Below are positions 1,313 through 43,907 of a stretch of 64,000 nucleotides of DNA, in pieces (positions within the stretch are counted from its first letter, which is position 1; every line of letters begins with the position of its first letter). The position numbers were made by a program, and so were the translations under genes. This DNA comes from Elusimicrobia bacterium GWA2_69_24 (GTDB taxonomy: Bacteria > Elusimicrobiota > Elusimicrobia > UBA1565), in assembly GCA_001799695.1 (NCBI GenBank), contig MGTY01000022.1:4031-68030 (forward strand), in the 5' to 3' direction. The notes beneath the pieces were generated by a model that was given only the letters and a program-made list of their open reading frames with translations, was not told where the DNA came from and ran no database searches.

Positions 1313-2127
1313 TGCCCTACGCGATCATCAACAAGATCCGGATGCACTACGAGGTAAGCGGGGAGGGCGCGCCGCTCCTGCTGATCAACGGGCTCTCGGC
1401 GCCGGCCGCCAACTTCCTCCCGCAGGTGAAGGAGCTCGCGCCTCACTTCCAGGTGATCACGTTCGACAATCGCGGGGTGGGCGAGACCGACCTGCCGCCC
1501 GAGCCTATCTACACGACGGCCCAGATGGCGGACGACGCGGCGGCGCTCCTGCGCCACCTGAGGATCAGGCGGGCCCACGTGCTCGGCACCTCGATGGGCG
1601 GCACGATCGCCCAGGAGCTGGTTCTCCGCCACCCGCGGCTCGTGCGCGCGCTCGTGCTCGCTTGCACCTGGGCGGAGGGGGATGCGCGCTTCCTGCACAC
1701 CATCGAGGCCTGGGTGTCGCTCGCCTACCGCGTGCCGACCGAGGAGCGGTACCGCTACGTTCTCTACCCGTGGATCTTCACGCCGGGGTTCTTCGCGAAG
1801 AAGGAGAACGTCGAGCAGGCGTTCCAGCGCGCGATGGCGTATCCGCACCAGACCAAGGCCGAGGCCATCGAGCGCCAGGCGCGCGGCATCCTCGCCTGGA
1901 ACGGCACGCGCACCAAGCGCCTCCGCGGCATCCGCGTGCCGACGCTCGTGCTCGTCGGCCGGGACGACATCCTGACGCCGCCGGCGCTTTCCCGCGCGCT
2001 CGCCAGGGCGATCGGCCGGCGCGCCCGCCTGAGCGTGCTGCCGGGAGGCCACGGTTTCTTCCTCGAGCAGGCGGACCTGTTCAACCGCGCGGTGCTCCGC
2101 TTCCTGAAGTCGGTCCGCTCGAAGTAG
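1312..2127 (+). CDS. alpha/beta-fold hydrolase
   Basis: ATG at 1312 overlaps the upstream TGA by 1 nt. The HVLGTSMGG nucleophile elbow (GxSxG) is present. The in-frame upstream extension to 928 is R-rich and looks spurious. Confidence 0.75.
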   Translation: MPYAIINKIRMHYEVSGEGAPLLLINGLSAPAANFLPQVKELAPHFQVITFDNRGVGETDLPPEPIYTTAQMADDAAALLRHLRIRRAHVLGTSMGGTIAQELVLRHPRLVRALVLACTWAEGDARFLHTIEAWVSLAYRVPTEERYRYVLYPWIFTPGFFAKKENVEQAFQRAMAYPHQTKAEAIERQARGILAWNGTRTKRLRGIRVPTLVLVGRDDILTPPALSRALARAIGRRARLSVLPGGHGFFLEQADLFNRAVLRFLKSVRSK

Positions 2128-2137
2128 CCGGGGACCC

Positions 2138-2893
2138 ATGAGGCTCGCGGGCAAGCACGCCGTCGTCACGGGCTCGACCAAGGGGATCGGCGCCGGCATC
2201 GCCCGCGCCTTCGTGCGCGAGGGGGCGCTCGTCGTGATCCACTCGCGGAGCGCCGCCGACTGTGCCGCCGTGGCCCGTGAGCTGGGGCCGGCGGCGGTTC
2301 CGATCGCCGCCGACCTGTCGCGCTCGGAGGAGGTACGGCGGCTGGCGCTCGATGCCCTCGGGGCGATGGATGACCGTGTGGATGTCCTGGTCAACAACGC
2401 GGGCCAGCCGCGCGTGGCGCCCTCGGTCGAGCTGCCCGAGGTCGACTACCGCTACACGCTCGACCTGAACCTGAACGCTTACTTCCTGCTGGCCCAGGCG
2501 CTCGGCCGGGGGATGCTCGCGCGGCAGTCGGGCGCGATCATCAACGTGGGCTCGATGAACGGCGCCGTCGCGTTCCCCCAGCGGCTCGCGTACTGCGTGT
2601 CCAAGGCCGGCGTGAACATGCTCACCAGGGTGCTCGCGATCGAGTGGGCGGGGTCGGGCGTGCGCGTGAACTGCATCGCCCCGGGCTACGTCGAGACCCC
2701 GTTCCTGACGGGGCTCTCGGCCAAGGGCATTCTCGACCTCGGGGCGCTCGCGCGCCGGACGCCGCTCGGTCGGCTCGGCACGCCCGAGGAGATCGGCGAG
2801 GCGGCCGTCTTCCTCGCGAGCGACGCGGCGTCGTTCGTCACCGGCGAGGTGCTCACGGTGGACGGCGGCTGGTCCGCCTACGGGTATCTGTAG
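2138..2893 (+). CDS. SDR-family oxidoreductase (3-oxoacyl-ACP reductase-like)
   Basis: TGSTKGIGAGIA Rossmann motif, NNAG, YCVSKAG (YxxxK) catalytic motif. Length 251 aa. Confidence 0.8.
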   Translation: MRLAGKHAVVTGSTKGIGAGIARAFVREGALVVIHSRSAADCAAVARELGPAAVPIAADLSRSEEVRRLALDALGAMDDRVDVLVNNAGQPRVAPSVELPEVDYRYTLDLNLNAYFLLAQALGRGMLARQSGAIINVGSMNGAVAFPQRLAYCVSKAGVNMLTRVLAIEWAGSGVRVNCIAPGYVETPFLTGLSAKGILDLGALARRTPLGRLGTPEEIGEAAVFLASDAASFVTGEVLTVDGGWSAYGYL

Positions 2894-2963
2894 GCCCCGC
2901 GCGGCGGGCCGCTCAGCGGGCGTGAAGGAACCGGGCACACGCGATCCCGTACAGGGGGGTGTC

Positions 2964-2988
2964 GGGGGGAGCGGCGGTCGCTCCCCCC
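2964..2988. terminator. GC-rich hairpin between convergent genes; candidate bidirectional terminator
   Basis: A 10-bp perfect inverted repeat, ggggggagcg and cgctcccccc, with a 5-nt loop, lies between the stop of the SDR (2893) and the stop of the minus-strand gene (2998). Confidence 0.35.
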
Positions 2989-2997
2989 GACGTCGAC

Positions 2998-4629
2998 TCA
3001 GCGGAACGAGCGGGTCAGCTCGACGCGGAGTACTTGATCGAAGCCGTCGTCGCCGGTCCTGAAGCCGCGGTTCTCGACGTGGCCCACGAGGTACTGGGCG
3101 AAGAGCGCATAGCGCTCCCAGAAGCGCCACGACACGTCGGCGCCGCCCCCGATCCGGCGCTGCTGGGGCACGAACTGCCCGGTCGTCGTGCCGATCACCG
3201 CGCGATCGATCTCGAACCCGAGCATCAGATTGTCCCCGAAGCGCTGGGTCAGCCGCGCGTAGTAGTCCGAGCCGTCGTTGCCGATGAAGTGGCCGATGAC
3301 GTGGCCGCGCGTCCAGTAGCCGCTGTAGAACTGGTCGTGCCTGTAGGACAGGCTCGACGTCTTGGCCCACTCGAAGCGCGCGTCGAGGCCTTCCCGGCCG
3401 AACAGGCCGAGCAGGTGCACGCCGAGGAGGCCGCCCGAGGCCTGGCGCTTGGGCAGGATGTTGGCGGTGAACCAGTTGTCGTCGCAGCAGGTGTCGTCCC
3501 AGTAGAACTCGCCGTAGAGACGGAGATCCCGGCTCGGCACGTAGTATCGGTCCACATCGCGGAGCCGGAGGTCGGCGTCGAGGGCGAGGAGGTTGTTGTT
3601 GCGGAAGCGCCGCTCCGGCCCCGTGTGCACATCGCCGGCCGGCGGGTCGAAGAGGATCTTCAGCGTGTCGCCGGCGTCGGGCCGAGGAGGGTCGCTCCCG
3701 CCGAACTGGATCACGCGGCTCAGGCCCAGCTCGAGCCAGCGGAAGGGTGAGGCCGTGGCTCTCATACCCATGAGCTTGGCGTCCGGGTGGTCACGCCGCT
3801 CCTCGTGCTGCCCCAGGAAGAAGAGGAGCTTGGTGGGCCCGACCCACGGGCCGATCCAGGGCACGAGGAAAGGCTCGGCCGCCTGCAGGCGGACCTGATC
3901 GAGCGGGGCGGCGTTGTTCGAGAGGATCAGGGAGCCGCGGAGGCCCGGGCCCCACCAGAGACTGTCGCGACCGACCAGCAGCTCGACGTTCCAGAGCGTG
4001 AGCTTGGCGTAGCCCGTGGCGAGCCGGGCCTGGCCGAAGTCCTCGTTGCGTTGAAGCTCCGGCTGCACGTAGAACGTCAGGAGATCGCCGATCTGCATCC
4101 GGCTCTCGAACGTGCCGAGCGCGTTGGCCCCGTGCTGAAGCGTGTGGCCCTGGTCGTTGATCAGCGAGTAGGTGCGGCTCGCCCAGCCGAAGCCGACCTG
4201 GGCTCGGTCGGCGGGCGTGAACGCGACGAGCGGCGCCGGGGCGGGGGGCGCGGCGGGCTTCACGGCGCCGAGCTGCTCCAGCTCGGGGCGCAGCGCGGTG
4301 ATGAGGCGGTCGAGCACGGGCTCGAGGTCGCGCCGCAGGTTGTAGGCGCCGGCGGCGTCGCCGCGGATCCGCTCGATGGCGCGGGCTACGGTGCGCGCGG
4401 CCTCGATGGGGCTCAGCGGCTTGGTGCTGAGGAGCGTGCGGTCGGCGAAGCCTGCGGTGACGAGCCGCTCGAGGTCGTCGTAGAGCGCATCGCGGTACAC
4501 GGAGAAGCCGCCCCAGTTCTTGAGGGGCACGTTCGCCCGGTCGGCCGCCGCGGCCACGCCCGCACCGGCGAGAGCGCCCTGCGCGAGCGCGACGAGGACG
4601 ACGGCGACGACGGAACGAGCGAGGCGCAT
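2998..4629 (-). CDS. secreted Wzi-like capsule-assembly / outer-membrane protein
   Basis: Internal ATG gives MRLARSVVAVVLVALAQGALAGAG, a signal peptide. The N-terminal region ...LYDDLERLVTAGFADRTLLSTKPLSPIEAARTV resembles the Wzi N-terminus. Roughly 540 aa, aromatic-rich, beta-barrel-like. Confidence 0.5.
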   Translation of the reverse strand: MRLARSVVAVVLVALAQGALAGAGVAAAADRANVPLKNWGGFSVYRDALYDDLERLVTAGFADRTLLSTKPLSPIEAARTVARAIERIRGDAAGAYNLRRDLEPVLDRLITALRPELEQLGAVKPAAPPAPAPLVAFTPADRAQVGFGWASRTYSLINDQGHTLQHGANALGTFESRMQIGDLLTFYVQPELQRNEDFGQARLATGYAKLTLWNVELLVGRDSLWWGPGLRGSLILSNNAAPLDQVRLQAAEPFLVPWIGPWVGPTKLLFFLGQHEERRDHPDAKLMGMRATASPFRWLELGLSRVIQFGGSDPPRPDAGDTLKILFDPPAGDVHTGPERRFRNNNLLALDADLRLRDVDRYYVPSRDLRLYGEFYWDDTCCDDNWFTANILPKRQASGGLLGVHLLGLFGREGLDARFEWAKTSSLSYRHDQFYSGYWTRGHVIGHFIGNDGSDYYARLTQRFGDNLMLGFEIDRAVIGTTTGQFVPQQRRIGGGADVSWRFWERYALFAQYLVGHVENRGFRTGDDGFDQVLRVELTRSFR

Positions 4630-4750
4630 GCGCCTAGGATACGAGCGCGGCGCGCCGCGGCGCGACGGTTTTGGCGACACCCGCCGAGGCCACAGGATGT
4701 GGGCGCCTGGGCGCCGGCCGTGCACAAGGGGTAGGAGGGGCGCTCGCGGG

Positions 4751-5533
4751 TCAGCGCCCGAAGCGGCGCTGGCGCTGCTGGTAGGCGCGCACGGCCCGGA
4801 GGAAATCCACCTGGCGGAACGCGGGCCAGTGGGCGTCGCAGAAGTAGAATTCGCTGTACGCGCTCTGCCAGAGCATGAAACCGGAGAGGCGGATCTCGCC
4901 GCTCGTGCGGATGATCAGGTCCGGGTCGGGCACGTCGGGCGCGTAGAGGTGGCGTGCAATCTCCTCCTGGGTGATCGTGTCGATCAGCGCCGGAACCTCC
5001 TCGCCCTGCTTGAGCTTGTCCCGCAGCATCTCGCGCACGGCGTCGGCGATCTCCTCGCGGCCCCCGTACGCCACGGCGATCAGGAGCGTCATGCCCTGGT
5101 GCTTGGCCGTCGCTGTCTCGGCGGCGCGGATGACGGCGAGCGTCGAGTCCGGCAGCAGCTCGAGCTTGCCGAGCGCTCGCACGCGCACGGCGTGGCGGCG
5201 GATGCGCCCATCCTGGGCGAGGCGCCCGAGCTTCGCCTCGACCGCCGCCAGGATCCCCGAGACCTCGTCGGGCGGGCGCCGGAGGTTCTCCGTCGAAAGC
5301 ACCCAGAGCGAGAGCGTCGGGATGCCCAGCTCGACGCACCAGGCCAGCACCTCGTCGAGCTTGTCGGCGCCGATGCCATAGGCGAGATCGAGGTCGGCCA
5401 GCCCGCGCTCGCGCGCGTAGCGACGGTTGCCGTCCAGGATGATGCCGACGTGGCTGGGCACCGGGCCCCGGCGGATGCGACGAGCCAGGCGCCACGCGTA
5501 GAGGCGGTAGAGCGGGCCCGTCAAGGAAACCAT
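4751..5533 (-). CDS. uppS: undecaprenyl (isoprenyl) diphosphate synthase, cis-prenyltransferase
   Basis: HVGIILDGNRRYA and IRTSGEIRLSGFMLWQSAYSEFYF motifs are characteristic of UppS. Start chosen at MVSLTG; an alternative ATG lies at 5557. Confidence 0.85.
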   Translation of the reverse strand: MVSLTGPLYRLYAWRLARRIRRGPVPSHVGIILDGNRRYARERGLADLDLAYGIGADKLDEVLAWCVELGIPTLSLWVLSTENLRRPPDEVSGILAAVEAKLGRLAQDGRIRRHAVRVRALGKLELLPDSTLAVIRAAETATAKHQGMTLLIAVAYGGREEIADAVREMLRDKLKQGEEVPALIDTITQEEIARHLYAPDVPDPDLIIRTSGEIRLSGFMLWQSAYSEFYFCDAHWPAFRQVDFLRAVRAYQQRQRRFGR

Positions 5534-5574
5534 TGGTGATGTCAGGCAGCTTAACATAAGCTCGGCCGGAACCG

Positions 5575-7131
5575 ATGCAATCGGCCACCCTCGCGGGACT
5601 CGTCGTCCTGGGGCTCGTCTCGGGCGCCGCCGGGATGGTCGGTGTCTACCTCGACACCGCCTGGCACCGCAGCGTCGGCCGCGACTCGTTCTTCATCCTG
5701 CCGCACCTGTTCATCTACGGTGGGGGCCTCGGCGTCTTGGCGGCGGCGCTCGGCGGCATCGCGCTGGCGACGCGCACGCCGGGCGCGGTCGGCGGCCCCG
5801 TCTGGCGGCTCGGGCGCCTCCACCTGCCGGCCGGCTTCAGCGTCACCGCGCTCGGCATCGGCGTCATCATGGCGGCGGCGCCCGTGGACGCCTGGTGGCA
5901 CGCCACCTTCGGCAAGGACGTGCTGATCTGGAGCCCGCCGCACCTGCAGCTCCACCTGGGCGCGGGCATCACGGCGCTCGGGCTCCTCTTCGCCGTCGCC
6001 GCCGAGCGGGGGCGGGGCGTGTTCGCCCGGCCCTGGCTCTGGCGGGCCGCGATGCTCGCCGTGCTCGTGGACCTCGTCCATCGCGGCCACTTCGTGCTCG
6101 CCCACTACACGATGCTCGCGCACTCGCGGACGCCCGACCTCTACCCGTTCCTGGTCGCGCTGCTGGCGCCGGTCGTCCTGGTCGCCGCGGCGCGCGCGGT
6201 CGGCCCGTGGGCGCCGACGCTGGCGTGCCTGGCGTTCCTCGGCGCCGCGTGGCTCATGGATGTGATGCTCCGGCTCATCGACTACGAGCGCTACACGCTC
6301 ACGCCGGTCCTGGCCGTGCCCGCCGCCGCGCTGTCGCTGGTCTTCCAGGTCGCAGGGCGGCGCCGCGGGCGCGCCTGGGTCGCGGTCGGCGCCGCGCTCG
6401 CATTCACCGGCGTCTTCCTCGTGACGGAAGTGGCGTGGATGCGCTGGGGCGTCAGCAGACCGTGGTCGCTCGACCTGCTGCTGGCCGCGCTGCCGCGCAC
6501 GCTCATCGCGGGCGTGGGGAGTGGCTGGGTGGGCTGGGTCGTGGGAGGTTTCCTGCGCGTGGCGGTTGCCCCGACGGGCTCGGGCGCCGCGGCGGCTGAG
6601 TTCGGCGGCCGGGGCCGGGCACGGGCGGCTGCGGCCGGCGCGCTCGCCCTCTCGGTGCTCGGTCTCACGGCGACCTACGCGCCCCAGCGCTACGGCCCGC
6701 CGATGACCGTCGCGGAGCTCAAGCTCGAGCCGGCGCCGGTGTTCCCGTACACGGAGGCGATCTTCTGGAACGCGTTCTTCGCCGCGGGCTGGCCCTTCGC
6801 CGCGGGCGTGGAGGCGCGGAGCGAGGGGATCATCGACGGCCTACCGATGCCCGTGGGCCCCGCGTGGTGCGCGCCCACCGAGGCGGCGCTGGCCACGGCG
6901 CTGCCGGACGTGCGCTTCCGTATGGAGGTGAACGGCACGCCCGTGGACCTCTCGCCGTACCCGCTCGTGCGCCTGCGCTTGCGAGATGGCGCCCACTGTG
7001 CGTGGGTGGGCGTCGCGTCGGCGTCGCAGCGCGCGAGCCAGAACCGCTTCGTCTACACGATCGCGCATCCGGCGGCCGGCGGGCCCGCCACGACGCGGGT
7101 CGAGCTGGGCGTGACCTTCAAAGATCCGTGA
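5575..7131 (+). CDS. polytopic membrane protein with conserved His motifs plus a Cys-containing C-terminal domain; unknown function; paralog A
   Basis: ATG start, about 8 hydrophobic segments. Motifs DTAWHRSVGRDSFF, DAWWH, WSPPHL, HYTML..RTPDLYPFL. The C-terminal roughly 170 aa carries PVGPAWC...NGTPVDL...DGAHCAWVGV. Confidence 0.6.
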   Translation: MQSATLAGLVVLGLVSGAAGMVGVYLDTAWHRSVGRDSFFILPHLFIYGGGLGVLAAALGGIALATRTPGAVGGPVWRLGRLHLPAGFSVTALGIGVIMAAAPVDAWWHATFGKDVLIWSPPHLQLHLGAGITALGLLFAVAAERGRGVFARPWLWRAAMLAVLVDLVHRGHFVLAHYTMLAHSRTPDLYPFLVALLAPVVLVAAARAVGPWAPTLACLAFLGAAWLMDVMLRLIDYERYTLTPVLAVPAAALSLVFQVAGRRRGRAWVAVGAALAFTGVFLVTEVAWMRWGVSRPWSLDLLLAALPRTLIAGVGSGWVGWVVGGFLRVAVAPTGSGAAAAEFGGRGRARAAAAGALALSVLGLTATYAPQRYGPPMTVAELKLEPAPVFPYTEAIFWNAFFAAGWPFAAGVEARSEGIIDGLPMPVGPAWCAPTEAALATALPDVRFRMEVNGTPVDLSPYPLVRLRLRDGAHCAWVGVASASQRASQNRFVYTIAHPAAGGPATTRVELGVTFKDP

Positions 7132-8630
7132 GGGTCCAGGACCCCGTCACGCTCGCCCTGGCGCTCGCGCTCGGCGCGGGCTGGTTCGGGTTTCCCGGCC
7201 TCCTCTGGGACGTCGCCTGGCACCGCTCGATCGGACGGGACACGTTCTTCTCGCCGCCGCACGCCCTCATGTACACGGGCGTCGCCGTGAACGGCCTCGT
7301 CGCGGCGTGGGCCGTGCTGTGGGGCCGGCGTCGCCACGGCGCGCCCGCCGCGTTCGCGCTCGGCGCCGTTGGGTTCCTGCTCGCCCTCGCGGGCGCGGCG
7401 CTCGACGAGTGGTGGCACGGGCACGTCGGCAAGGACGTGAACCTCTGGAGCCCGCCGCACCTGGTCGGCCTCGCCGGCACCGTGCTGATCGCCGTCGGGC
7501 TGATGCTGGCGCTCGCGGCCCACACGCGCTACGCGCGGGGGCCCGGCTGGCTCGTGCCGCGCGTGATCCTGCTCTTCGGCTTCGCCGACCTCGTGCACAA
7601 GGCGATGGTGGCGCTCGACCACTACACGCTCGACCCCTGGGGTCGCACGCCGGACTTCTACCCGTTCCTGCTGGCGCTGCTGTTGCCTGCGGTCTTCCTG
7701 ACGGCTGTGCGTGCCCTGGGCCCCGGCGCCGCCACGGCGGCCGCCGTCGTGTTCACGGCGGAGCACCTCGCGATCAACCTGGTGCTCCAGGCCGCCGGCA
7801 TGCGCACGGCGACGCTGACGCCGATCCCGATCCTGCCCGCGCTGGCCGTGGACCTCGTCGCCGTGGCGTTCGCTGCGCGCGGCGGCGCGGCGCTCGTCGC
7901 GGTGGCGGGCGGACTGGCTTTCGCCCTGACCACGCAGGCGCAGGAGGCGGCGTGGATGGCGTGGGTCGTCGCCCGGCCGTGGCCGCTCGCCGACGTCGTC
8001 GCCGCCGCGCCGCGCGTCGCGCTGGCCGCGACGGGGAGCGCCTGGGCCGGCTGGGCGCTCGGAGGCTTCGTGCGCGGCGCGGGCGCGGGGCGGCCCGCGC
8101 GCGAGGTCTTCGGTAGCGCGGCGCGGGCGAGGGGCGCCGGCGCGGCGATGCTCGTGCTTGCCGCGGCCGGCCTCGCCGCCGCATACCGCCCGTCGCGCGC
8201 CGAGCCCCCGGCGAGCCTGGCCGCGCTCGCGCTCGCGCCCGACACGGGCTTCGACCATCGCGACGCCGTGTTCTGGGAGCCACTCCTGCCCGACGGCTGG
8301 CGCGCGCCCGGCGCGCACGCGGCGTACCAGGAGGCCATCGTCGATGGTCGCGGGATTCCCGTGGGCCCGACCTGGTGCGGGAAGGACGAGGCCGCGCTGG
8401 GCCGCGAGCTGGCGACGGTGCGCGTCGCGCTCGCGATCAACGGCGAGGCCGTGGACCTCCGGCACTACCCGCGCACGCGTCGGCGAACGCGCGACGGCTC
8501 CGTGTGCGAGTGGGTCGGTGTCTCCGTGACGGCGCCGCGCCCGGGCTTCCAGGCGCTCGTCTACACCGTGGAACGCGACGGGGCCGCCCCGTCGCGGGTG
8601 ACGGTGCGGCTCAGGGTGAAGGAGCCCTGA
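7128..8630 (+). CDS. paralog B of the upstream His-motif membrane protein
   Basis: GTG at 7128 overlaps the TGA of paralog A (GTGA). It repeats the same motifs (DVAWHRSIGRDTFF, DEWWH, WSPPHL, HYTL, PDFYPFL) and the C-terminal PVGPTWC...NGEAVDL...DGSVCEWVGV. Confidence 0.6.
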   Translation: MRVQDPVTLALALALGAGWFGFPGLLWDVAWHRSIGRDTFFSPPHALMYTGVAVNGLVAAWAVLWGRRRHGAPAAFALGAVGFLLALAGAALDEWWHGHVGKDVNLWSPPHLVGLAGTVLIAVGLMLALAAHTRYARGPGWLVPRVILLFGFADLVHKAMVALDHYTLDPWGRTPDFYPFLLALLLPAVFLTAVRALGPGAATAAAVVFTAEHLAINLVLQAAGMRTATLTPIPILPALAVDLVAVAFAARGGAALVAVAGGLAFALTTQAQEAAWMAWVVARPWPLADVVAAAPRVALAATGSAWAGWALGGFVRGAGAGRPAREVFGSAARARGAGAAMLVLAAAGLAAAYRPSRAEPPASLAALALAPDTGFDHRDAVFWEPLLPDGWRAPGAHAAYQEAIVDGRGIPVGPTWCGKDEAALGRELATVRVALAINGEAVDLRHYPRTRRRTRDGSVCEWVGVSVTAPRPGFQALVYTVERDGAAPSRVTVRLRVKEP

Positions 8631-8675
8631 CCCGGGGCGGAATTTCTCGGTGCCGGCCGGCGGCGCTGTACGACA

Positions 8676-9074
8676 ATGATCGGCATGGTCAGTCGGGCCG
8701 CCGACTGGTTCAGGCAGGCCGAGCGTGACCTGGCACAGGCGGAGGATTCGCGCCGGGCCGGGCGCCACGAGTGGGTCTGTTTCGCCGCCCACCAGGCGGG
8801 GGAGAAGGCCGTGAAGGCCCTGCATCTGCACCTGGGGCAGGAGGCGTGGGGCCATGTCGTCGCGAAGCTGCTCCGCGATCTTCCGGCTTCGGCAGGAGTT
8901 CCGAGCACGCTGGTCGAGCAGGGGCAAGTGCTCGACACGTTCTACATCCCGTCGCGCTACCCGAACAGTCATCCCGAAGGCGCGCCGTTCGAGCACTACG
9001 GCCCGCTTCAGAGCGAGGAGGCGTTGCGCTTTGCCGGTGCGATCATTGAGTTCGTCCGTCGTCGTCTGGCCTGA
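8676..9074 (+). CDS. HEPN-domain protein (HEPN/MNT module)
   Basis: 132 aa helical protein with AAHQAGEKAVKALHL and a C-terminal YIPSRY motif, typical of HEPN. Confidence 0.7.
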   Translation: MIGMVSRAADWFRQAERDLAQAEDSRRAGRHEWVCFAAHQAGEKAVKALHLHLGQEAWGHVVAKLLRDLPASAGVPSTLVEQGQVLDTFYIPSRYPNSHPEGAPFEHYGPLQSEEALRFAGAIIEFVRRRLA

Positions 9075-9396
9075 CCGGCCGACGGTCGAGTCCGCGCTCC
9101 GTCGCTGGGCCAGGGAAGCGGCTCGGGCTCGGCCAGAGATCCGCCGCGTCGGCTACTTTGGCTCTTACGCGCGCGGCGATTGGGGGGTCGGGAGCGATCT
9201 GGACGTCGTGCTCGTCGTGGCGTACGCCGACCTGCCATTCCGGCGGCGCGCGGCCTTATGGGATCTTACCTCACTGCCGGTGCCTGCCGACGTGCTCGTG
9301 TACACCGAGGAGGAATGGCGGGGCCTCGACCCGCAGAGCCGCTTCGCGCGCGTACTCGCCAAGGAGGTTGTCTGGGTGTGGGTCAGGGGGTCTTGA
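9037..9396 (+). CDS. MNT-type nucleotidyltransferase domain protein, partner of the HEPN protein
   Basis: Pol-beta nucleotidyltransferase motif GYFGSYARGDWGVGSDLDVVLV. No ATG; likely GTG 9037 or TTG 9046. Overlaps the HEPN gene. Confidence 0.6.
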   Translation: MRSLSSSVVVWPDRPTVESALRRWAREAARARPEIRRVGYFGSYARGDWGVGSDLDVVLVVAYADLPFRRRAALWDLTSLPVPADVLVYTEEEWRGLDPQSRFARVLAKEVVWVWVRGS

Positions 9397-9988
9397 GGGA
9401 CGTCACGATCAGCTCGCGCCCGCCGGGTGTCCGGTCGAGCCGGCTCACGGGCACCCTGGCGCGGCGGTAGGCCTCGAGCAGCGCGGCCTCCGTGTAGCGG
9501 AAGGTGTGGACCCGGCCGTCCACCGTCCGCGTCAGCGCGCGCGCGGCCCAGCGCGCGAGCGCCGAGCGCGACTGCGAGAGGTTGCGCACGGGCTCGGCGA
9601 CGACCAGGAGGCGCCCCGCGGCGGCCCAGAGCCGCGCCAGCAGGCTGTCCGCGACGTCGTGGAACTGATATAAGCTTGCTTGCATGATCACGGTCTCCGC
9701 GGTGGGCAGCGGGCGGGCCGCGCGCACGTCGAAGGCGCGGACGTCCACGCCGCGCCGCCGCGCGCTCCGCAGCATCGCCGGCGCCTGCTCGAGGCCGATG
9801 TACGCGCGCACCAGGCCGCGCGCCGCGAGATGCCGGTAGAGCGCGAGGTCGCCCGGGCACACCTCGAGGACGTCGGCCGGGCCGCCGAGCCGGTCGGCGA
9901 CGAGGGCGAGGCGCGCCGCGTAGTCGCCGCCGTAGCCCGCGCGCATCAGGAGTCCGTAGAACGCGGGGCACCCGTAGACGCTCAGCAT
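9383..9988 (-). CDS. small class I SAM-dependent methyltransferase
   Basis: 201 aa. Contains VLEVCPGDLALY (a motif-I-like G-rich loop) and resembles small MTs. Its start codon overlaps the divergent GT2 start (CATG). Confidence 0.55.
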   Translation of the reverse strand: MLSVYGCPAFYGLLMRAGYGGDYAARLALVADRLGGPADVLEVCPGDLALYRHLAARGLVRAYIGLEQAPAMLRSARRRGVDVRAFDVRAARPLPTAETVIMQASLYQFHDVADSLLARLWAAAGRLLVVAEPVRNLSQSRSALARWAARALTRTVDGRVHTFRYTEAALLEAYRRARVPVSRLDRTPGGRELIVTSLKTP

Positions 9989-10982
9989 GGCTCACCATAG
10001 CACCGGCGAGCTGGTCTCGATCGTCGTCCCGGTCTGCAACGAGGAGGCGAACCTCCCGGAGTTGCGCGCGCGCCTCACGGCCGCGCTGGCGGGCCACGAG
10101 TTCGAGTGCATCCTGGTGGACGACGGCAGCACCGACACCACGGCCGCCCTGGCCCGCGACTTCGCCCGCGAGGATCCGCGCTTCAAGCTCGTGAGCCTCT
10201 CGCGCAACTTCGGCCACCAGGCGGCGATCTTCGCGGGCCTCACCTTCGCGCGCGGCGCCTGCGTGGCGGTGATGGACGGCGACCTCCAGGACCCGCCCGA
10301 GCTGCTCCCCGAGATGCTGCGCCTGCGGGCCAAGGGCACCGAGGTCGTCTACGGCGTCCGCAGCGTGCGCAAGGAGCGCTGGCTCACGCGCGCGCTGGCC
10401 GCCGTCTACTACCGGCTCCTGGCTCGGCTGACCGCGACACGCATGCCGCTCGACGCGGGCGACTTCGCCGTCATGGACCGTCGTGTCGTGGACCTGATCG
10501 TCGCCATCGGCGAGCGCCATCCCTACGTGCGGGGCCTCCGGAGCTGGGTGGGCTTCCGCCAGGTCGCGGTGCCCTATGTGCGCGAGCGCCGCGGCAAGGG
10601 CGAGCCCAAGTACACGCTCTGGAAGCTTCTCGACCTCGCCCTCGCGGGGATCGTCGCGTTCTCGGTCGTACCGCTGCGGCTCGTCGCCCTCGGCGGCGCC
10701 GCGCTCGCGGCGCTCTCCGCCGCCGCTGCGCTTGTGCTCCTGCTCCAGCGGCTGGCGGGCGCGAGCCTCGCCGGCCCGCCCGCGGGCTGGCTGGCCTGGG
10801 CCCTGGTGGCTGCGGGGGGCGTGCTGGGCCTCCAGCTTCTGGTCCTCGGCGTGCTCGGCGAGTACGTGGGGCGAGTCCTCGAGGAGGTCCGGCACCGCCC
10901 GGTCTTCGTCGTCGACGAGGTGGTGGGGCTGGACCGGCTGCCGGTCGCGCCCCGGCGGGATCGGCACCCGCCGCCGGACTGA
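9987..10982 (+). CDS. GT2 polyprenyl-phosphate sugar synthase (ArnC/GtrB/DPM1-like)
   Basis: N-terminal SIVVPVCNEEANL, VDDGSTD, DGDLQDPPE catalytic motifs, and C-terminal TM helices typical of lipid-phosphate sugar synthases. Confidence 0.8.
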   Translation: MAHHSTGELVSIVVPVCNEEANLPELRARLTAALAGHEFECILVDDGSTDTTAALARDFAREDPRFKLVSLSRNFGHQAAIFAGLTFARGACVAVMDGDLQDPPELLPEMLRLRAKGTEVVYGVRSVRKERWLTRALAAVYYRLLARLTATRMPLDAGDFAVMDRRVVDLIVAIGERHPYVRGLRSWVGFRQVAVPYVRERRGKGEPKYTLWKLLDLALAGIVAFSVVPLRLVALGGAALAALSAAAALVLLLQRLAGASLAGPPAGWLAWALVAAGGVLGLQLLVLGVLGEYVGRVLEEVRHRPVFVVDEVVGLDRLPVAPRRDRHPPPD

Positions 10983-11005: not shown

Positions 11006-11410
11006 TCAGGCTGTCGGCACCACGGTTGCTGAGAGCTCGAGAATGAAGCGGGCGTCCCGCAGAGCCTCGTGCGCGTCCTGCCGCGCGTACAGGCGCTCCG
11101 GCGGCGCTCCCGCCTCCTCATCGCCGTAGAAACTGATTTCGCGCTCCTGCCGCAACCGACGCGAGATCGATACCACGCGATCAAGCTGCTGGGTCAGGGA
11201 CGCGGAGAATCGGTCGGCATGCTCGCGAAGGAAGATCCCGACATCGGGCACGCGTGGGACTTCGACGCCGCCACTCCGGAGGACCGCCTTCAGCGCGAGC
11301 TCCACGGCCTCCTGGCTACGCCGGACGACCAGGTGCCAGGCTTCCGCCTGCTCGTGATGCTCGGCCTCCGTCAAGATTCGTCGAGCTTGGCGGAGGTGGC
11401 TCTGGGCCAT
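11006..11410 (-). CDS. HEPN-domain protein (second HEPN/MNT module)
   Basis: Helical protein with AVELALKAVL and a C-terminal ISFYGDEEAG...RLYARQDA region. An alternative TTG start at 11452 would overlap the MNT gene. Confidence 0.6.
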   Translation of the reverse strand: MAQSHLRQARRILTEAEHHEQAEAWHLVVRRSQEAVELALKAVLRSGGVEVPRVPDVGIFLREHADRFSASLTQQLDRVVSISRRLRQEREISFYGDEEAGAPPERLYARQDAHEALRDARFILELSATVVPTA

Positions 11411-11421
11411 CTGGAGATTCG

Positions 11422-11955
11422 TCAGAGCTCGATAACCTCCCCGGGCTTCCAATCGGGCTTCAAGACCCAGTAACGGATCTGCCCACGGGTCCGCCGCTCG
11501 GCGCCGAGTCGCCTCAGGGAAGTCTCGAGCCGGGCGAGAACGCTGCGGAAAAACGCGTCGCGATCATAGAGGAAGCGCGCGTCCTGGACGAGATCGAGGT
11601 ACACAGGCACCAACCGGGAGGCTTCTTCGCGTGTCTTCAGAAGCGGGGCCACGCGGGGCTCGAGGCTCAACGAGCGCAGCCGGTCGAGCTCGGACTCAAA
11701 GGAGCGTTCCACCTCTTCGAGCTGACGGAGCCGCGCAAAGCGACCGAACGGCAAGTGTTCGGCGACGATCAGGAGGTCGATATCCGAATCGGACCGGGCT
11801 TCGCCGCGCGCGACCGAGCCGAAGAGGACCACGGAGACGAGGTTGTCGCCGAGCGCATCCTTCAGGAGCCCGGTGTAGCGCTCGGCCGCCGCGCGGAAGG
11901 CGCGGCTGATATCGAGGGCGCTGGTCGGTGGCTGCCTGCGCGTTGCCGGGTCCAT
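11422..11955 (-). CDS. MNT-type nucleotidyltransferase, partner of the downstream HEPN protein
   Basis: LFGSVARGEARSDSDIDLLIV nucleotidyltransferase motif. Canonical MNT-then-HEPN gene order. Confidence 0.75.
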   Translation of the reverse strand: MDPATRRQPPTSALDISRAFRAAAERYTGLLKDALGDNLVSVVLFGSVARGEARSDSDIDLLIVAEHLPFGRFARLRQLEEVERSFESELDRLRSLSLEPRVAPLLKTREEASRLVPVYLDLVQDARFLYDRDAFFRSVLARLETSLRRLGAERRTRGQIRYWVLKPDWKPGEVIEL

Positions 11956-11970
11956 TCTACCGCGACACGG

Positions 11971-13707
11971 TCAGCGGTTCGCGTAGAGTCGGCGCGAGCC
12001 GAACTGCCCGAGCGCGCGCACGCTCGTGGCCGGGAGCGCCGCCACCACGCTTCGCGCGGGTGCCTGGCGGATCACCAGGAACACGCGCCGCGGCCCCGCC
12101 CAGAGTCGCCGCAACGCTTGCGTGTCGAGGAACACGCCCTGCGCCTCGGGCAGCTTTGAGGCGAAGGAGAAGTAGCCGACGTCGCCGTTCACGAGGAGCG
12201 CCCGCCGGCCCGTGTAGAAGGGGATGGCCGGACTGTACTCGAGGGAGCCCTCGATCACGATGACGTCGTCCGGCCCGGCCTCGGCCACGATCGCCCGTGA
12301 GACCTCCCGGGCCGAGTGGTGCGGTGCGATCAGCCCGAGGAGCGCGAGCAGGAGACCGGTGATCCCCGCGGCCACCGCCACGAGCGCGCCGAGCGCGCTC
12401 CGGCGCCAGCCGCGCACCCAGCAGAGCGTCGCGATGCCCCAGCCCAGGATCAGCGTCAGCCCCAGCGCCTGCAGGAGCAGGCCGAACGGGCGCGCCGAGG
12501 CGAACGGGAAGGGGACGCCCTGCTCGCGCAGGATGCGGTAGTAGACGTTCAGCTCGGCGAGCCCGGCCATCGCCTGCTCGGGCGTGAGGCCGCCACCGAT
12601 CCAGATCGCTCCGGCGCCGCCCAGCACGGAGCCGACGAGCCCCGCCCCGAGCCAGCGGCCGATGTCGCGTCCGCCGGCCCAGGCCGCGCCGACCAGGATC
12701 GCAAGCGCCGGGAAGGCCGGCAGCGCGTAGTACTCGTGCTTGAAGCGCGAGAGCGAGAAGAGGCCCACGATCACGAGAGCCCAGATGACGATCAGCGGGC
12801 GCCAGCGCGCCTGCGCGGGCGTGCCGGGCGCCAAGCGCGCGAGCACGAAGACGCCCCAGGGGAACGCCCAGAGGAAGCTCGCCACCAGGAAGCCCGCGGT
12901 CGAGATCGGCACGTCGTCCTCGACGAAGCGCCGGGCGTCGAGGAAGCGCAGGAGGTGGTTATCGAGCACGTAGAACCCGAACAGCGTCCCGGAGCGCCAC
13001 GCGGCCAGCGCGTGCCACGGCACCGTGAGCAGCAGGAAGAGCCCGGCGCCGCGCGCTGGGTTCAGGTCGCGCCAGGCGAGCCGGCGCGCCCACGCCATCG
13101 CGAGCCCCACGATCAGCACGGGGAACACGAGCCCGATGAACCCCTTGGCGAGCACGCTGAGAGCGGCGCCGACCCAGAGCCAGAGAAAGCGCGTCCGGCC
13201 GCGATCGGGGCGCTCGGCGTCTCGCACGAAGCCGTAGAGCGCCAGCGTGAGACAGAAGATGAAGAGCTGGTCGGTCGACGCCTTGCGCACGTAGAGCGCG
13301 TTGCCGACGACCGTGGCGACCACGAGCCCCGCCAGGAGCCCCGCCCGGGGGCCGTGGAGGCGCCGCCCGATCCGCCAGGTGAGCAGGGCCGTGCCGAGCG
13401 CCGCCAGCGCCGACCAGAGGCGCGTCGCCCACTCGGACGGACCGGCCACCGCGTAGGTCAGCGCCGTCAGCCAGAAGTAGAGGGGAGGCTTCTCGAGGTA
13501 GGGCAGGCCGTTCACGTGGGGGATGATCCAGTCGCCGCGCGCCAGCATCTCCTGCGCGATCGCGGCGTAGAGGCCTTCGTCGGGGTCGAGCAGGGGCAGC
13601 CGGAGGTCGAAGAAGAGGAAGGGGAGGCTGACGGCTAGCAGCAGGGCAAGGCCGGGGAGACGCGAACCCCCGAGGAGGGCGTCAGCAGCGCTGTCGCTGG
13701 ACCTCAC
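11971..13707 (-). CDS. ArnT/PMT-family GT-C glycosyltransferase (GT83/GT39-like)
   Basis: LDPDEGLYAAIAQEMLARGDWIIPHVNGLPYLEKPPLYFW is the signature of ArnT/PMT_2. About 12 TM segments. GTG start. Confidence 0.8.
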   Translation of the reverse strand: MRSSDSAADALLGGSRLPGLALLLAVSLPFLFFDLRLPLLDPDEGLYAAIAQEMLARGDWIIPHVNGLPYLEKPPLYFWLTALTYAVAGPSEWATRLWSALAALGTALLTWRIGRRLHGPRAGLLAGLVVATVVGNALYVRKASTDQLFIFCLTLALYGFVRDAERPDRGRTRFLWLWVGAALSVLAKGFIGLVFPVLIVGLAMAWARRLAWRDLNPARGAGLFLLLTVPWHALAAWRSGTLFGFYVLDNHLLRFLDARRFVEDDVPISTAGFLVASFLWAFPWGVFVLARLAPGTPAQARWRPLIVIWALVIVGLFSLSRFKHEYYALPAFPALAILVGAAWAGGRDIGRWLGAGLVGSVLGGAGAIWIGGGLTPEQAMAGLAELNVYYRILREQGVPFPFASARPFGLLLQALGLTLILGWGIATLCWVRGWRRSALGALVAVAAGITGLLLALLGLIAPHHSAREVSRAIVAEAGPDDVIVIEGSLEYSPAIPFYTGRRALLVNGDVGYFSFASKLPEAQGVFLDTQALRRLWAGPRRVFLVIRQAPARSVVAALPATSVRALGQFGSRRLYANR

Positions 13708-16351: not shown

Positions 16352-17476
16352 ATGCTGAAGGCCATCTATGAGCTGAAGTCGCCCGACATCGAAAAGGCCG
16401 CGCACGCGATCGCCGTGGGCCAGTCGGTGGGGAACCCGTACGTGCGGAACTCGCGGGAGACCAAGGCGCTGGTGAAGAAGCACGCGGCGACGGTCGAGTC
16501 GATCGAGGGCGGCAAGGTCACCGTTCGGTTCCCGGCGGTGAACTTCGGACCGCGCGACGGGATTTCGTTCATGATGAGCGTCCTGATGGGCGGCCAGATG
16601 GATATCGACCTCATCGAGGGGTGCAAGCTCCTGGACGTCGAGTTCGGCCCGCTGCTGCGGCGCTTCTCGGGGCCCCGGTTCGGTCTGGAACAGATCCGCC
16701 AGATGACCGGCGCGGTCGACCGGCCGCTCATCGGCGGCATCGTCAAGCCGAAGATCGGGCTCACGCCCGACGGGCTGGCCGAGGTCTGCCGCGAGATGGC
16801 CGAGGGCGGCGTGGACTTCATCAAGGAGGACGAGATCCTCGGTGATCCGTCCTGGTGCCCGCTCCGGAAGCGCGTGCCGGCGGTGGCGGAGGCCTTGAAG
16901 GGCTTCAGGACCGTGTACGCTCCCTGCATCACGGCGGACGGCGACGAGGTCGTCCGACGGGCCAGGCTCGCGAAGTCACTCGGCGCGACGGCTGTCCACG
17001 TGAACCTCTGGTCCGGTCTCGGGAGCTATGCCAGGATCCGTGAGAAGGTCGAAATCCCGATCTTCTTCCAGAAGAGCGGTGACAAGGTGTTCACCACCGG
17101 CCACCACTCGCTGCAGTTCTCGCTTCTGTGCAAGCTCATCCGCCTGATCGGCTGCGACTTCACGCACGTCGGCATGTGGGGCGGCTACATGAGCGAGCCC
17201 GAGGTGGAGCTGCGGGAGCGCCTGTATGCGCTCCAGGGGCCGTGGTGCGAGCTTCCGAGGGTCGTTCCCAGTTTCTCCTGCGGGGCGCACCCCGGGATGG
17301 TCCAGGCCCTCGTCAAGCGCTTCGGAAACGACATCATGGTGACCTCGGGGGGGGCGATCCACGGGCATCCCCTCGGCACCCGCGCGGGCGCCATGGCGTT
17401 CCGCCAGGCGCTCAGCGCGAGCACGCCGCCGCCGGAGCTGGCGGCCGCGATCGAGGAGTGGGGGCTTGTGCGGTGA
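16352..17476 (+). CDS. RuBisCO-like protein (form IV RLP, RuBisCO large-subunit family)
   Basis: IGGIVKPKIGL (the KPK carbamylation motif) and GGVDFIKEDE (the GGLDFTKDDE equivalent). 374 aa, no small subunit nearby. Confidence 0.8.
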   Translation: MLKAIYELKSPDIEKAAHAIAVGQSVGNPYVRNSRETKALVKKHAATVESIEGGKVTVRFPAVNFGPRDGISFMMSVLMGGQMDIDLIEGCKLLDVEFGPLLRRFSGPRFGLEQIRQMTGAVDRPLIGGIVKPKIGLTPDGLAEVCREMAEGGVDFIKEDEILGDPSWCPLRKRVPAVAEALKGFRTVYAPCITADGDEVVRRARLAKSLGATAVHVNLWSGLGSYARIREKVEIPIFFQKSGDKVFTTGHHSLQFSLLCKLIRLIGCDFTHVGMWGGYMSEPEVELRERLYALQGPWCELPRVVPSFSCGAHPGMVQALVKRFGNDIMVTSGGAIHGHPLGTRAGAMAFRQALSASTPPPELAAAIEEWGLVR

Positions 17477-42920: not shown

Positions 42921-43907
42921 ATGTCGGTCGAGAAGCGGACGGCGGTCGCCGTGTCTCTCGTCCGGGTGGCCGTGGGCGGGGTGGCAGTTGCTCGGACCGT
43001 CGGCGGGCTGGTCGGCGGCCTCGACCGGGGCTGGTCCATGCTCCCGGTCGTTCTCGAGGGCGTGACGGGCGCGGGCGTCCTGCTCGGCGTCTTCTTCCGT
43101 CCGTGTCTGGCGCTCCTGGCGCTGAGCCTGCTCGTCGGGACGGTCGGCGCGTCCGACGGGGCGATCACGCTCGGGGCCGCGCCCTACGCCGCGCAGAGCC
43201 TCGGCGTCCTGGCGGCGCTCGCGCTCGTGGGGCCCGGCCGGTACACGCTGGGCTGGGTGGTCCGGCGGTTCCGGGGCGCGGCGATCAGCTATCCGGTGAC
43301 GCGACAGCCCACCGACATCTTCGGGCTGAAATACCTGCCGACGCTCGCGCCACGCCACAGCGACGACGCCGACTTCATCGTCGGCAAGCCGGTGGACGCG
43401 GAGGTCACGCCGCGAAATCTGCGAAAGCTCGAGGAGATCGTCCTGGCGACGAGGCAGAGCGGCAAGCTCATCGTCGAGATCGGCGTGTGCCGGAACGCCG
43501 AGGGCTCGTTCACCCACGTGCTGCTGCGGCACAAGCCGCGTGACGCCGTTTATCTCGGGATCGACATGGACGACAAGTCCTTCCTCGACGATCCGGCGAG
43601 GAGCATCCACACGCTGCGGACGGATTCGCGGGACCAGGATCTGGTGCGCGCCAAGATCAAGGAGCTCGGCGGCCCGCCGATCGGCATCCTGTTCATCGAC
43701 GGATGGCATTCCGTCAACGTCGCGGTGAACGACTGGAAGTACGCGGACCTGCTCGCCGAGGACGGCGTCGTGGTGCTCCACGACACGAACTGCCATCCCG
43801 GCCCCGTGTGCCTGTTCGACGCGGTGGACGAGCGACTCTTCCACAAGGAGAAGTTCTTCGAGCGCGAGCGGGACTGGGGGATGGCGGTGTTTCGAAGGCG
43901 TCGATGA
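42921..43907 (+). CDS. fusion of a DoxX-like four-TM domain with a class I SAM-dependent methyltransferase domain (Methyltransf_24/TylF-CmcI-like)
   Basis: The N-terminal 110 aa are hydrophobic and DoxX-like. The C-terminal region has LIVEIGVCRN, ILFIDGWHS, VVVLHDT. Confidence 0.6.
   Translation: MSVEKRTAVAVSLVRVAVGGVAVARTVGGLVGGLDRGWSMLPVVLEGVTGAGVLLGVFFRPCLALLALSLLVGTVGASDGAITLGAAPYAAQSLGVLAALALVGPGRYTLGWVVRRFRGAAISYPVTRQPTDIFGLKYLPTLAPRHSDDADFIVGKPVDAEVTPRNLRKLEEIVLATRQSGKLIVEIGVCRNAEGSFTHVLLRHKPRDAVYLGIDMDDKSFLDDPARSIHTLRTDSRDQDLVRAKIKELGGPPIGILFIDGWHSVNVAVNDWKYADLLAEDGVVVLHDTNCHPGPVCLFDAVDERLFHKEKFFERERDWGMAVFRRRR

Follow-up and report, generated by a model that had tools for sequence, protein, structure and literature searches.

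A 64,000-nucleotide stretch of contig MGTY01000022.1 (GenBank assembly GCA_001799695.1, positions 4,031 to 68,030 of the forward strand; hereafter the window) from the metagenome-assembled genome (MAG) Elusimicrobia bacterium GWA2_69_24 carries two adjacent open reading frames (ORFs), here called ORF A and ORF B, that encode polytopic membrane proteins. An initial annotation, made from the letters alone, had described them as a tandem, translationally coupled pair of paralogs belonging to no characterised family, and in both respects it was right. The sequence GTGA at 7128-7131 joins the GTG start codon of B (7128-7130) to the TGA stop codon of A (7129-7131), the two products are 41% identical over 505 amino acids (aa; E=6e-75), and neither A nor B, nor any of 48 diverse relatives, scores above the threshold of a Pfam or NCBIfam model. 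The start codon of B is supported by its ortholog in a related MAG, which begins at the same place. ORF A is identical to the NCBI entry 'MAG: hypothetical protein A2X36_02085' of the same MAG, and its close homologs come from Rokubacteria/Methylomirabilota MAGs and from metagenomes of soil or groundwater.

We aligned 52 orthologs that are 41-77% identical to A and found that the motifs listed in the initial annotation, all of which are present in both A and B, are invariant or nearly so. Fully invariant are D27, H31, R32, R36, D37, P43 and H44 in the region of motif 1, D105, H109, G113, D115, W119, S120 and H123 in that of motif 2, and H177, Y178, R185, D188, Y190 and P191 in that of motif 3. 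Motif 3 is invariant within this subfamily, while the wider family described below keeps mainly Y178, R185, Y190 and P191. An AlphaFold2 model of A built on the ortholog alignment (predicted local distance difference test score, pLDDT, 92.1; predicted template modeling score, pTM, 0.90) shows 11 transmembrane (TM) helices followed by a beta-rich region at residues 368-518. Lysines and arginines number 12 on the N-terminal side and in the even loops versus 7 in the odd loops (net charge +10 versus +1), a bias that holds across the ortholog alignment. Following the positive-inside rule, the N-terminus of A is thus cytoplasmic, motifs 1-3 are found where TM1/2, TM3/4 and TM5/6, respectively, reach the periplasm, and the C-terminal domain faces the periplasm. 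This domain, which had been put at roughly 170 aa, spans about 150 aa, and its two cysteines (C432 in PVGPAWC and C475 in DGAHCAWVGV) stand as proposed: both are invariant in the ortholog alignment and, since the pair sits in a periplasmic domain, a disulfide between them is plausible. The same alignment shows no conserved His or Met in the domain, which is confined to the Rokubacteria/Methylomirabilota subfamily. The features of the pair and its surroundings, including those that emerged from profile hidden Markov model (HMM) searches, are collected in Table 1.

Table 1. Positions of the coupled pair, its parts and its neighbours in the window, with examples of a partner gene found at other loci
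Sequence	Feature	Position	Strand	Description
Window	ORF A	5575..7131	+	518 aa, ATG start; 11-TM membrane protein with periplasmic C-terminal domain
Window	A, TM1-TM4 module (residues 1-142)	5575..6000	+	PmoC/AmoC-like by hhalign, Foldseek and reciprocal HMM searches
Window	A, motif 1 DTAWHRSVGRDSFFILPH (residues 27-44)	5653..5706	+	D27/H31/H44 and R36
Window	A, motif 2 DAWWHATFGKDVLIWSPPH (residues 105-123)	5887..5943	+	D105/H109/H123
Window	A, motif 3 HYTMLAHSRTPDLYPFL (residues 177-193)	6103..6153	+	periplasmic end of TM5, loop, start of TM6
Window	A, TM6-TM11 (residues 190-366)	6142..6672	+	six-helix bundle; like the S-components of energy-coupling factor (ECF) transporters, weakly PmoA/AmoA-like
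Window	A, C-terminal beta-sandwich (residues 368-518)	6676..7128	+	periplasmic; C432 (6868-6870), C475 (6997-6999)
Window	ORF B	7128..8630	+	500 aa, GTG start; paralog of A
Window	B, motif 1 DVAWHRSIGRDTFFSPPH (residues 28-45)	7209..7262	+	D28/H32/R37/H45
Window	B, motif 2 DEWWHGHVGKDVNLWSPPH (residues 93-111)	7404..7460	+	D93/H97/H111
Window	B, motif 3 HYTLDPWGRTPDFYPFL (residues 165-181)	7620..7670	+	
Window	B, C-terminal periplasmic beta-sandwich	8184..8627	+	C417 (8376-8378), C460 (8505-8507)
Window	Wzi-like capsule assembly protein (PF14052)	2998-4725	-	575 aa; beyond uppS
Window	uppS	4751..5557	-	divergent from ORF A, 17 bp between start codons
Window	HEPN and nucleotidyltransferase (MNT-type) pair	8676-9396	+	toxin-antitoxin (TA)-like
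Window	201-aa gene	9383-9988	-	no Pfam match; sequence looks like an S-adenosylmethionine (SAM) methyltransferase
Window	GT2	9987..10982		start overlaps divergent start codon of the 201-aa gene
Window	second HEPN and nucleotidyltransferase (MNT-type) pair	11006-11955	-	
Window	ArnT/PMT_2-like GT-C	11971..13707		
Window	RuBisCO large-chain-like protein (PF00016)	16352-17476	+	
Locus L054	partner gene	7068-8483		
Locus L029	partner gene	7109-8656		
Locus L060	partner gene	1447-2970		

The four N-terminal helices bear a resemblance, down to individual residues, to PmoC/AmoC, the catalytic subunit C of the copper membrane monooxygenases (CuMMOs). In PmoC the copper ligands are D156, H160 and H173 at site CuC and N227, H231 and H245 at site CuD (PMC12576850), and the CuC/CuD pocket is the active site of particulate methane monooxygenase (pMMO) (PMC11725843, PMC13058606). 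The CuC residues correspond to D27/H31/H44 in A and D28/H32/H45 in B, the active-site R165 to R36 and R37, and the CuD residues to D105/H109/H123 and D93/H97/H111, with the same spacing at both sites and Asp in place of Asn at the second. Both proteins hence carry the complete CuC pattern (Asp-x3-His-x12-His with an Arg five residues past the first His) and the spacing of the CuD pattern (Asn-x3-His-x13-His), its Asn replaced by Asp.

This correspondence recurred across methods. When B was searched against the PDB with phmmer, the best 12 matches were all PmoC/AmoC (best E=0.001), in an alignment spanning motifs 1 and 2, and the top three PDB matches of the 52-ortholog profile were AmoC; among 48 diverse members, AmoC (PF04896) was the only recurrent Pfam match, found below threshold in 12. 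Aligned by hhalign, the N-terminus of the family matched 8 PmoC fragments with a probability of 83% (E=8.8e-6) and 72 full-length PmoC sequences recovered from metagenomes with a probability of 80% (E=1.4e-5), the PmoC profiles, like the PmoA profiles used below, being bacterial and of moderate diversity. In reciprocal searches, the top 40 matches of the family's N-terminal HMM among 358 ORFs of pmo loci were all PmoC, and 173 of the 179 matches of the PmoC HMM among 3,236 ORFs (E<=10) were family members, the best 12 listed all aligning to the family's N-terminal region. A separate model of the N-terminus (residues 1-186; pLDDT 90), compared by Foldseek (3Di plus amino acid), placed cryo-electron microscopy AmoC/PmoC chains at ranks 1, 2, 3, 7, 11 and 12 (probability 0.80-0.97), with TM-scores of 0.52-0.54, the highest in the list.

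It could be argued that the resemblance is convergent or due to chance, and that the proteins are, for example, solitary ECF-S-like small-molecule transporters or heme redox proteins of the cytochrome b561 kind. We regard this as improbable. The PmoC signal proved specific in controls: the hhalign score of 37.6 compares with 12.4±2.5 for column shuffles, 17.6±3.7 (maximum 29.6) for block shuffles and 9.6 for the reversed profile, and the PmoC HMM, once reversed, matched 3 members. Moreover, seven functional positions match with identical spacing, and Foldseek ranks PmoC/AmoC first. As for a transporter, no EcfT or EcfA genes are found among the window neighbours of the pair. Cytochromes b561 have four conserved His on four helices, with one heme near each membrane face; we rejected this assignment, as the match is at 4% identity and the conserved His of the family all lie on one side of the membrane. 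A side observation concerns the relative P0128, in which the AmoC model aligned one hairpin out of register (residues 116-200), setting the CuC motif on motif 2 of the family. We ascribe this shift to an internal repeat, motif 1 being similar to motif 2 just as CuC is to CuD in PmoC; the repeat suggests an old hairpin duplication that may predate the split from PmoC.

Judging from sequence and predicted fold, TM1-TM4 appear to be remotely homologous to the PmoC/AmoC segment with CuC and CuD, the sites that make up the active-site pocket of particulate methane and ammonia monooxygenases, and A and B are most likely copper-site membrane proteins acting at the outer leaflet, rather than glycan enzymes. 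The initial annotation had suggested a metal- or cofactor-binding membrane enzyme; the look of a metal site is borne out by the alignment with the CuC/CuD residues, and enzymatic activity is something we infer. In the arrangement we propose, A and B are inner-membrane proteins that would each bind one or two ions, presumably copper, at the boundary of membrane and periplasm, where each hairpin of TM1-TM4 would present its Asp-x3-His...His triad at the periplasmic end. The TM6-TM11 bundle would pack beside the metal site, probably shaping a lipid-facing pocket or an access path, as the AmoA helices do in ammonia monooxygenase (AMO), with the disulfide-bearing beta-sandwich sitting on the periplasmic face, and the translationally coupled A and B may assemble into one complex. 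The site itself may use copper for redox or oxygenase reactions on a substrate that is small or membrane-soluble, much as the PmoC core does in CuMMOs, a reading to which we give slightly less than even chances.

The pair belongs to a large family that occurs in at least 8 phyla. Profile searches returned 2,417 representatives of 50%-identity clusters at E<=1e-3 (956 at E<=1e-10), and a scan of one genome per species returned 408 relatives; most members are 330-400 aa long and cover TM1-TM10 only. Across 92 diverse representatives clustered at 50% identity, H31, R36, H44, D105, H109, G113 and H123 are kept in 92/92 and D27 in 91/92, W108 and D115 are each kept in 90/92, and position 37 is D or E in 90/92. 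The phyla of the 408 relatives include Rokubacteria/Methylomirabilota (with several paralogs per genome in Rokubacteria), Chloroflexota, Dormibacterota, Actinomycetota (Rubrobacter), Acidobacteriota, Gemmatimonadota, Myxococcota, Proteobacteria, Verrucomicrobiota and Deinococcota. Of the 80 genome loci listed, a single one comes from a cultured isolate: it lies on plasmid NZ_CP045122.1 of Rubrobacter marinus SCSIO 52915 (L064/L086), where the motif region is found at about 42972-43262 on the minus strand, just upstream of the hypothetical protein WP_166398683.1. The PLSDB table, from which pseudogenes are omitted, lists no gene for this region, which may reflect a miscalled start or a pseudogene. 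In addition, a stand-alone 178-aa ORF at another locus (L004, 10615-11151) is 54-56% identical to the beta-sandwich of A. A full-length homolog is located 1 kb upstream of this ORF, which is a fragment of a gene, the product of a break in the assembly or a copy of the domain that stands by itself.

One fusion raises the thought of a sensor. In P0184 (802 aa; metagenomic, on contigs of up to 78 kb) the membrane domain is joined to PAS and GGDEF (diguanylate cyclase) domains, and the ligands are conserved in all 92 representatives, P0184 included, so that in this lineage the His/Asp site may serve as sensor input. Were this to apply to the family at large, the proteins would form a sensory or regulatory module that catalyses nothing itself and whose His/Asp site responds to redox state, O2, a metal or some small hydrophobic ligand. 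Such a fusion was seen in one of about 150 listed representatives, however, and A, B and most other members have neither an output domain nor adjacent signalling genes, and we therefore consider a general sensory role improbable.

The second membrane half offers a lead of another kind. TM6-TM11 adopt the six-helix fold of ECF S-components, while at the sequence level no S-component family was matched in Pfam or in the PDB profile search. A likeness to PmoA, the A subunit of pMMO, also surfaced: the relative P0230 scored 23.5 bits (E=5e-5; gathering threshold, GA, 25.6) on Archaeal_AmoA over residues mapping to A 184-290 (TM6-9), PmoA filled 37 of the top 40 rows when the TM6-10 HMM was searched against pmo-locus ORFs (best E=0.0015), and PmoA HMMs matched 26 family members at E<=10 versus 5 with the reversed profile, nearly all of the top family matches (12-15 listed per search) falling in the C-terminal TM half. 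By hhalign, TM6-10 matched PmoA with a probability of 1.7-7.8% and, at 7.8%, a score of 24, which does not discriminate it from the 21 of the mismatched pair of N-terminus and PmoA. Because this probability is low and the score non-discriminating, we treat the likeness as a lead and do not claim homology of TM6-TM11 to PmoA. Searched against the PDB, the TM6-10 profile matched only RnfE (E=0.027), with neither PmoA nor an ECF protein, and phmmer of P0230 matched nothing. A bacterial PmoA used as query against the PDB drew no archaeal chain.

Outside the window, many family genes have a partner. In 25/73 loci from at least 6 phyla (Gemmatimonadota, Acidobacteriota, Myxococcota, Actinomycetota, Proteobacteria and Verrucomicrobiota; L024-L084), a gene encoding 470-515 aa directly follows the family gene, often overlapping it; clustering of the neighbours over all ORFs of 79 loci yielded no other conserved partner, the remaining clusters being lineage-specific synteny. 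The partner protein has a signal peptide ending just before an invariant His, the predicted mature N-terminus, followed by a beta domain of ~120 aa, two TM helices with a basic loop, and two further periplasmic modules with the invariant motifs DHGxxMH...HxHP and YxGMxxH...HxHPxG and His-rich loops. Searches of Pfam and the PDB returned nothing for it beyond a faint YtkA match, and a comparison with PmoB, the B subunit of pMMO, gave 0.7% by hhalign and no HMM matches; the C-terminal beta-sandwich described above likewise gave no signal against PmoB by hhalign or HMM. This His/Met-rich partner is a likely periplasmic copper-binding protein. Some family members also fuse His-starting periplasmic domains to their own N- or C-terminus, one of which scores as YtkA-like, and the YtkA domain is found both in YcnJ, which imports copper, and in the metallation of oxidases (PMC12154828).

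These observations bear on the possibility that the PmoC-type site is real and serves as a copper relay or insertase, passing copper from periplasmic chaperone-like domains to cuproproteins of the membrane or periplasm or into the cell, in a role comparable to that of CopC-CopD-YtkA (YcnJ) or CtaK/Sco-type assembly factors. The fused YtkA-like and His-starting domains and the His/Met-rich partner speak for such a relay, and the ECF S-components that TM6-11 resemble bind and carry substrates including Co and Ni. Nevertheless, the conserved polar residues all lie at periplasmic helix ends, leaving no conserved path across the membrane visible, several paralogs occur per Rokubacteria genome, and A and B are themselves without a His/Met-rich domain. 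We thus judge a relay unlikely, if considerably less so than a sensor, and prefer the catalytic reading because both adjacent triads and the Arg are kept exactly as in the catalytic pocket and no trans-membrane pathway is conserved.

On a tentative note, the family as a whole could be a sister group of the CuMMOs, in which a PmoC-like and a PmoA/AmoA-like part are fused in a single chain and, in many phyla, a partner of PmoB layout follows, in C-A-B order; we regard this as possible, if doubtful. In this picture the periplasmic part would in Rokubacteria be the fused disulfide-bearing beta-sandwich instead, and the A/B pair would stem from a duplication of the gene.

The surroundings of the pair in the window had suggested a different role. 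As the initial annotation noted, ORF A diverges from the gene for undecaprenyl-PP synthase, and from this and the lipid-linked glycosylation genes nearby it raised a polymerase, a ligase or a lipid-carrier-processing enzyme. Such a glycan polymerase or ligase, or undecaprenyl-carrier enzyme, would work with UppS, GT2 and the ArnT-like GT-C, and uppS, a Wzi-like gene, GT2 and a PMT_2/ArnT-like gene do flank the pair, among other neighbours such as a hydrolase and a short-chain dehydrogenase/reductase. The arrangement has parallels: at six loci of close relatives (L002, L006, L007, L008, L016, L020) the 201-aa gene again comes after B, at most of them ahead of GT2 or ArnT, and Wzi and UppS are nearby. 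Between close relatives (A 62-77% identical; only a B-type gene in L016) the same genes recur in shuffled order: A, B, 201-aa gene and GT2 in L002 and L006; B, 201-aa gene and ArnT in L016; A and B separated by Wzi, with the 201-aa gene and GT2 after them, in L020; and a Wzi-like gene between the A-type and B-type genes in L007. In L002, L006, L016 and L020 the B-type gene has the 201-aa gene (68-74% identical) as its immediate downstream neighbour, and UppS is several kb away or absent in close relatives.

This shared synteny is weak evidence, however, because the genomes in question are closely related: the link to uppS, GT2, ArnT and Wzi is limited to close relatives from Rokubacteria, in which A is at least 62% identical. 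Homologs about 50-54% identical to A are single-copy and lie between amidase/peptide ATP-binding cassette (ABC) genes and a pilin-like gene with the mraZ-dcw cluster, while distant members lie by unrelated genes (P0142, for example, by cobalamin and folate genes). We accordingly find the glycan role unsupported and very improbable. Neither Pfam nor fold comparison linked the proteins to PMT_2, Wzy_C, O-antigen ligase or families related to these, and a GT-C or O-antigen ligase or polymerase was rejected. The initial annotation had itself named, as the outcome that would speak against its proposal, assignment to a copper-related membrane family with no tie to glycans, and this is largely what we observed, at the level of remote homology only. 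CopD (PF05425) and Caa3_CtaG were considered and dropped: neither matched A or B at E<=1, and both are absent among the 25 listed of the 28 Pfam families matched at E<=10 by 48 relatives. The same Pfam searches gave no CopC match either.

Two further features of the gene neighbourhoods may be noted. The PhD/PIN and RHH/PemK pairs of L002 occupy the slots of the two HEPN/MNT pairs of the window; given that different TA pairs sit in the same slots, the slots between ORF B and GT2/ArnT look like a hot spot for TA modules. The pilin-like gene (176-190 aa, with a hydrophobic N-terminus) lies at 9649-10179 in L001, 11215-11745 in L004 and 9517-10089 in L005, and is followed there by the mraZ-rsmH-ftsL-PBP-mur (dcw) cluster, PBP standing for a penicillin-binding protein.

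Several points weigh against the proposal that A and B hold a catalytic, PmoC-like copper site. All sequence matches to the curated models are below threshold: the only Pfam and NCBIfam matches were weak ones of B to AmoC/PmoC models (13.3 bits versus a GA of 26.7 for PF04896; 14.8 versus 280.6 for TIGR03078), A had none, and the best of 48 relatives reached 17.2 bits on PF04896, giving a range of 13-17 versus 26.7 bits. Phmmer of A alone against the PDB yielded no PmoC match and only noise (monobody matches), and the Foldseek E-values are weak (0.2-1). In the window, no ORF matched the PmoA or PmoB HMMs significantly, and there is no pmoCAB/amoCAB-type operon, no obvious gene supplying reductant and no His/Met-rich partner gene in its 64 kb. 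Furthermore, Asp/His/His triads also bind Zn or Fe, and the PAS-GGDEF fusion of one relative suggests sensing over catalysis. Since the curated thresholds, the operon and the architecture all fail to fit, A and B are not CuMMO C subunits.

CuMMOs control methane and ammonia oxidation, and are very hard to study, their pocket being fragile outside native membranes. This pocket has so far been known only within the CuMMOs; we found no literature on distant homologs, and what we found on PmoC-/AmoC-like families outside CuMMOs concerned extra pmoC/amoC copies in methanotrophs, nitrifiers and phages. What appears to be new here is a PmoC-like copper-site module in a new single-chain scaffold, with more than 2,400 sequence clusters from soil and groundwater phyla that keep the six ligand positions and the Arg. 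Should the site bind copper, the active site of the CuMMOs would gain new models that may be easier to work with, PmoC and perhaps also PmoA would have a candidate evolutionary source, and there would be a further copper-dependent activity in the abundant uncultured Rokubacteria, Chloroflexota, Gemmatimonadota and Acidobacteria. If the family is indeed a sister group of the CuMMOs, it would mean copper oxygenases or oxidases in non-methanotrophs and a window on the origin of pMMO and AMO.

Among known systems, the CopC-CopD-YtkA importers (YcnJ of B. subtilis), with YcnI, share with the family a polytopic domain with conserved His and His-starting periplasmic beta-sandwiches, whereas the periplasmic domain of A and B has a putative disulfide instead of conserved His or Met. 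ECF S-components (YkoE 5EDL, RibU, BioY, PanT, FolT, CbiM) match TM6-TM11 much better than PmoA does, but in A and B the bundle sits fused behind a metal-site module and not alone. With PmoA/AmoA (PF02461, PF12942), the order of a C-like followed by an A-like part matches that of pmoCAB. PmoB/AmoB and the partner protein of other phyla share their layout (PMC13058606), in which a signal peptide precedes a mature N-terminus starting with His, and a beta domain and two TM helices are followed by additional beta domains in the periplasm; they also share a gene placed directly after the C/A-like gene, as in pmoCAB. Unlike PmoB, the partner comprises three periplasmic modules, in which HxHP and GMxGH motifs occur, and it has no detectable sequence similarity to PmoB. 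PmoC/AmoC (PF04896; PDB 7S4H, 7S4M, 9CL6) differs from A and B in size and makeup: PmoC has six TM helices and about 250 aa, whereas A and B have 11 TM helices and 500-518 aa, match only the last four PmoC helices, do not have the N-terminal about 110 residues of PmoC, and carry seven more helices and a periplasmic domain as a fusion, in a family whose hosts (Rokubacteria, Chloroflexota, Gemmatimonadota, Acidobacteria and others) are not known to use this gene for the oxidation of methane or ammonia. Nonetheless, both share two consecutive helical hairpins that each bear [D/N]-x3-H...H, a Trp before each first His, an Arg five residues past the first His, an acidic residue six positions past the second-site His and a Pro two before the last His. 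We have filed the module as PmoC-like because it carries this ligand pattern and because PmoC/AmoC is the best remote match of the family by HMMER, hhalign and Foldseek alike.

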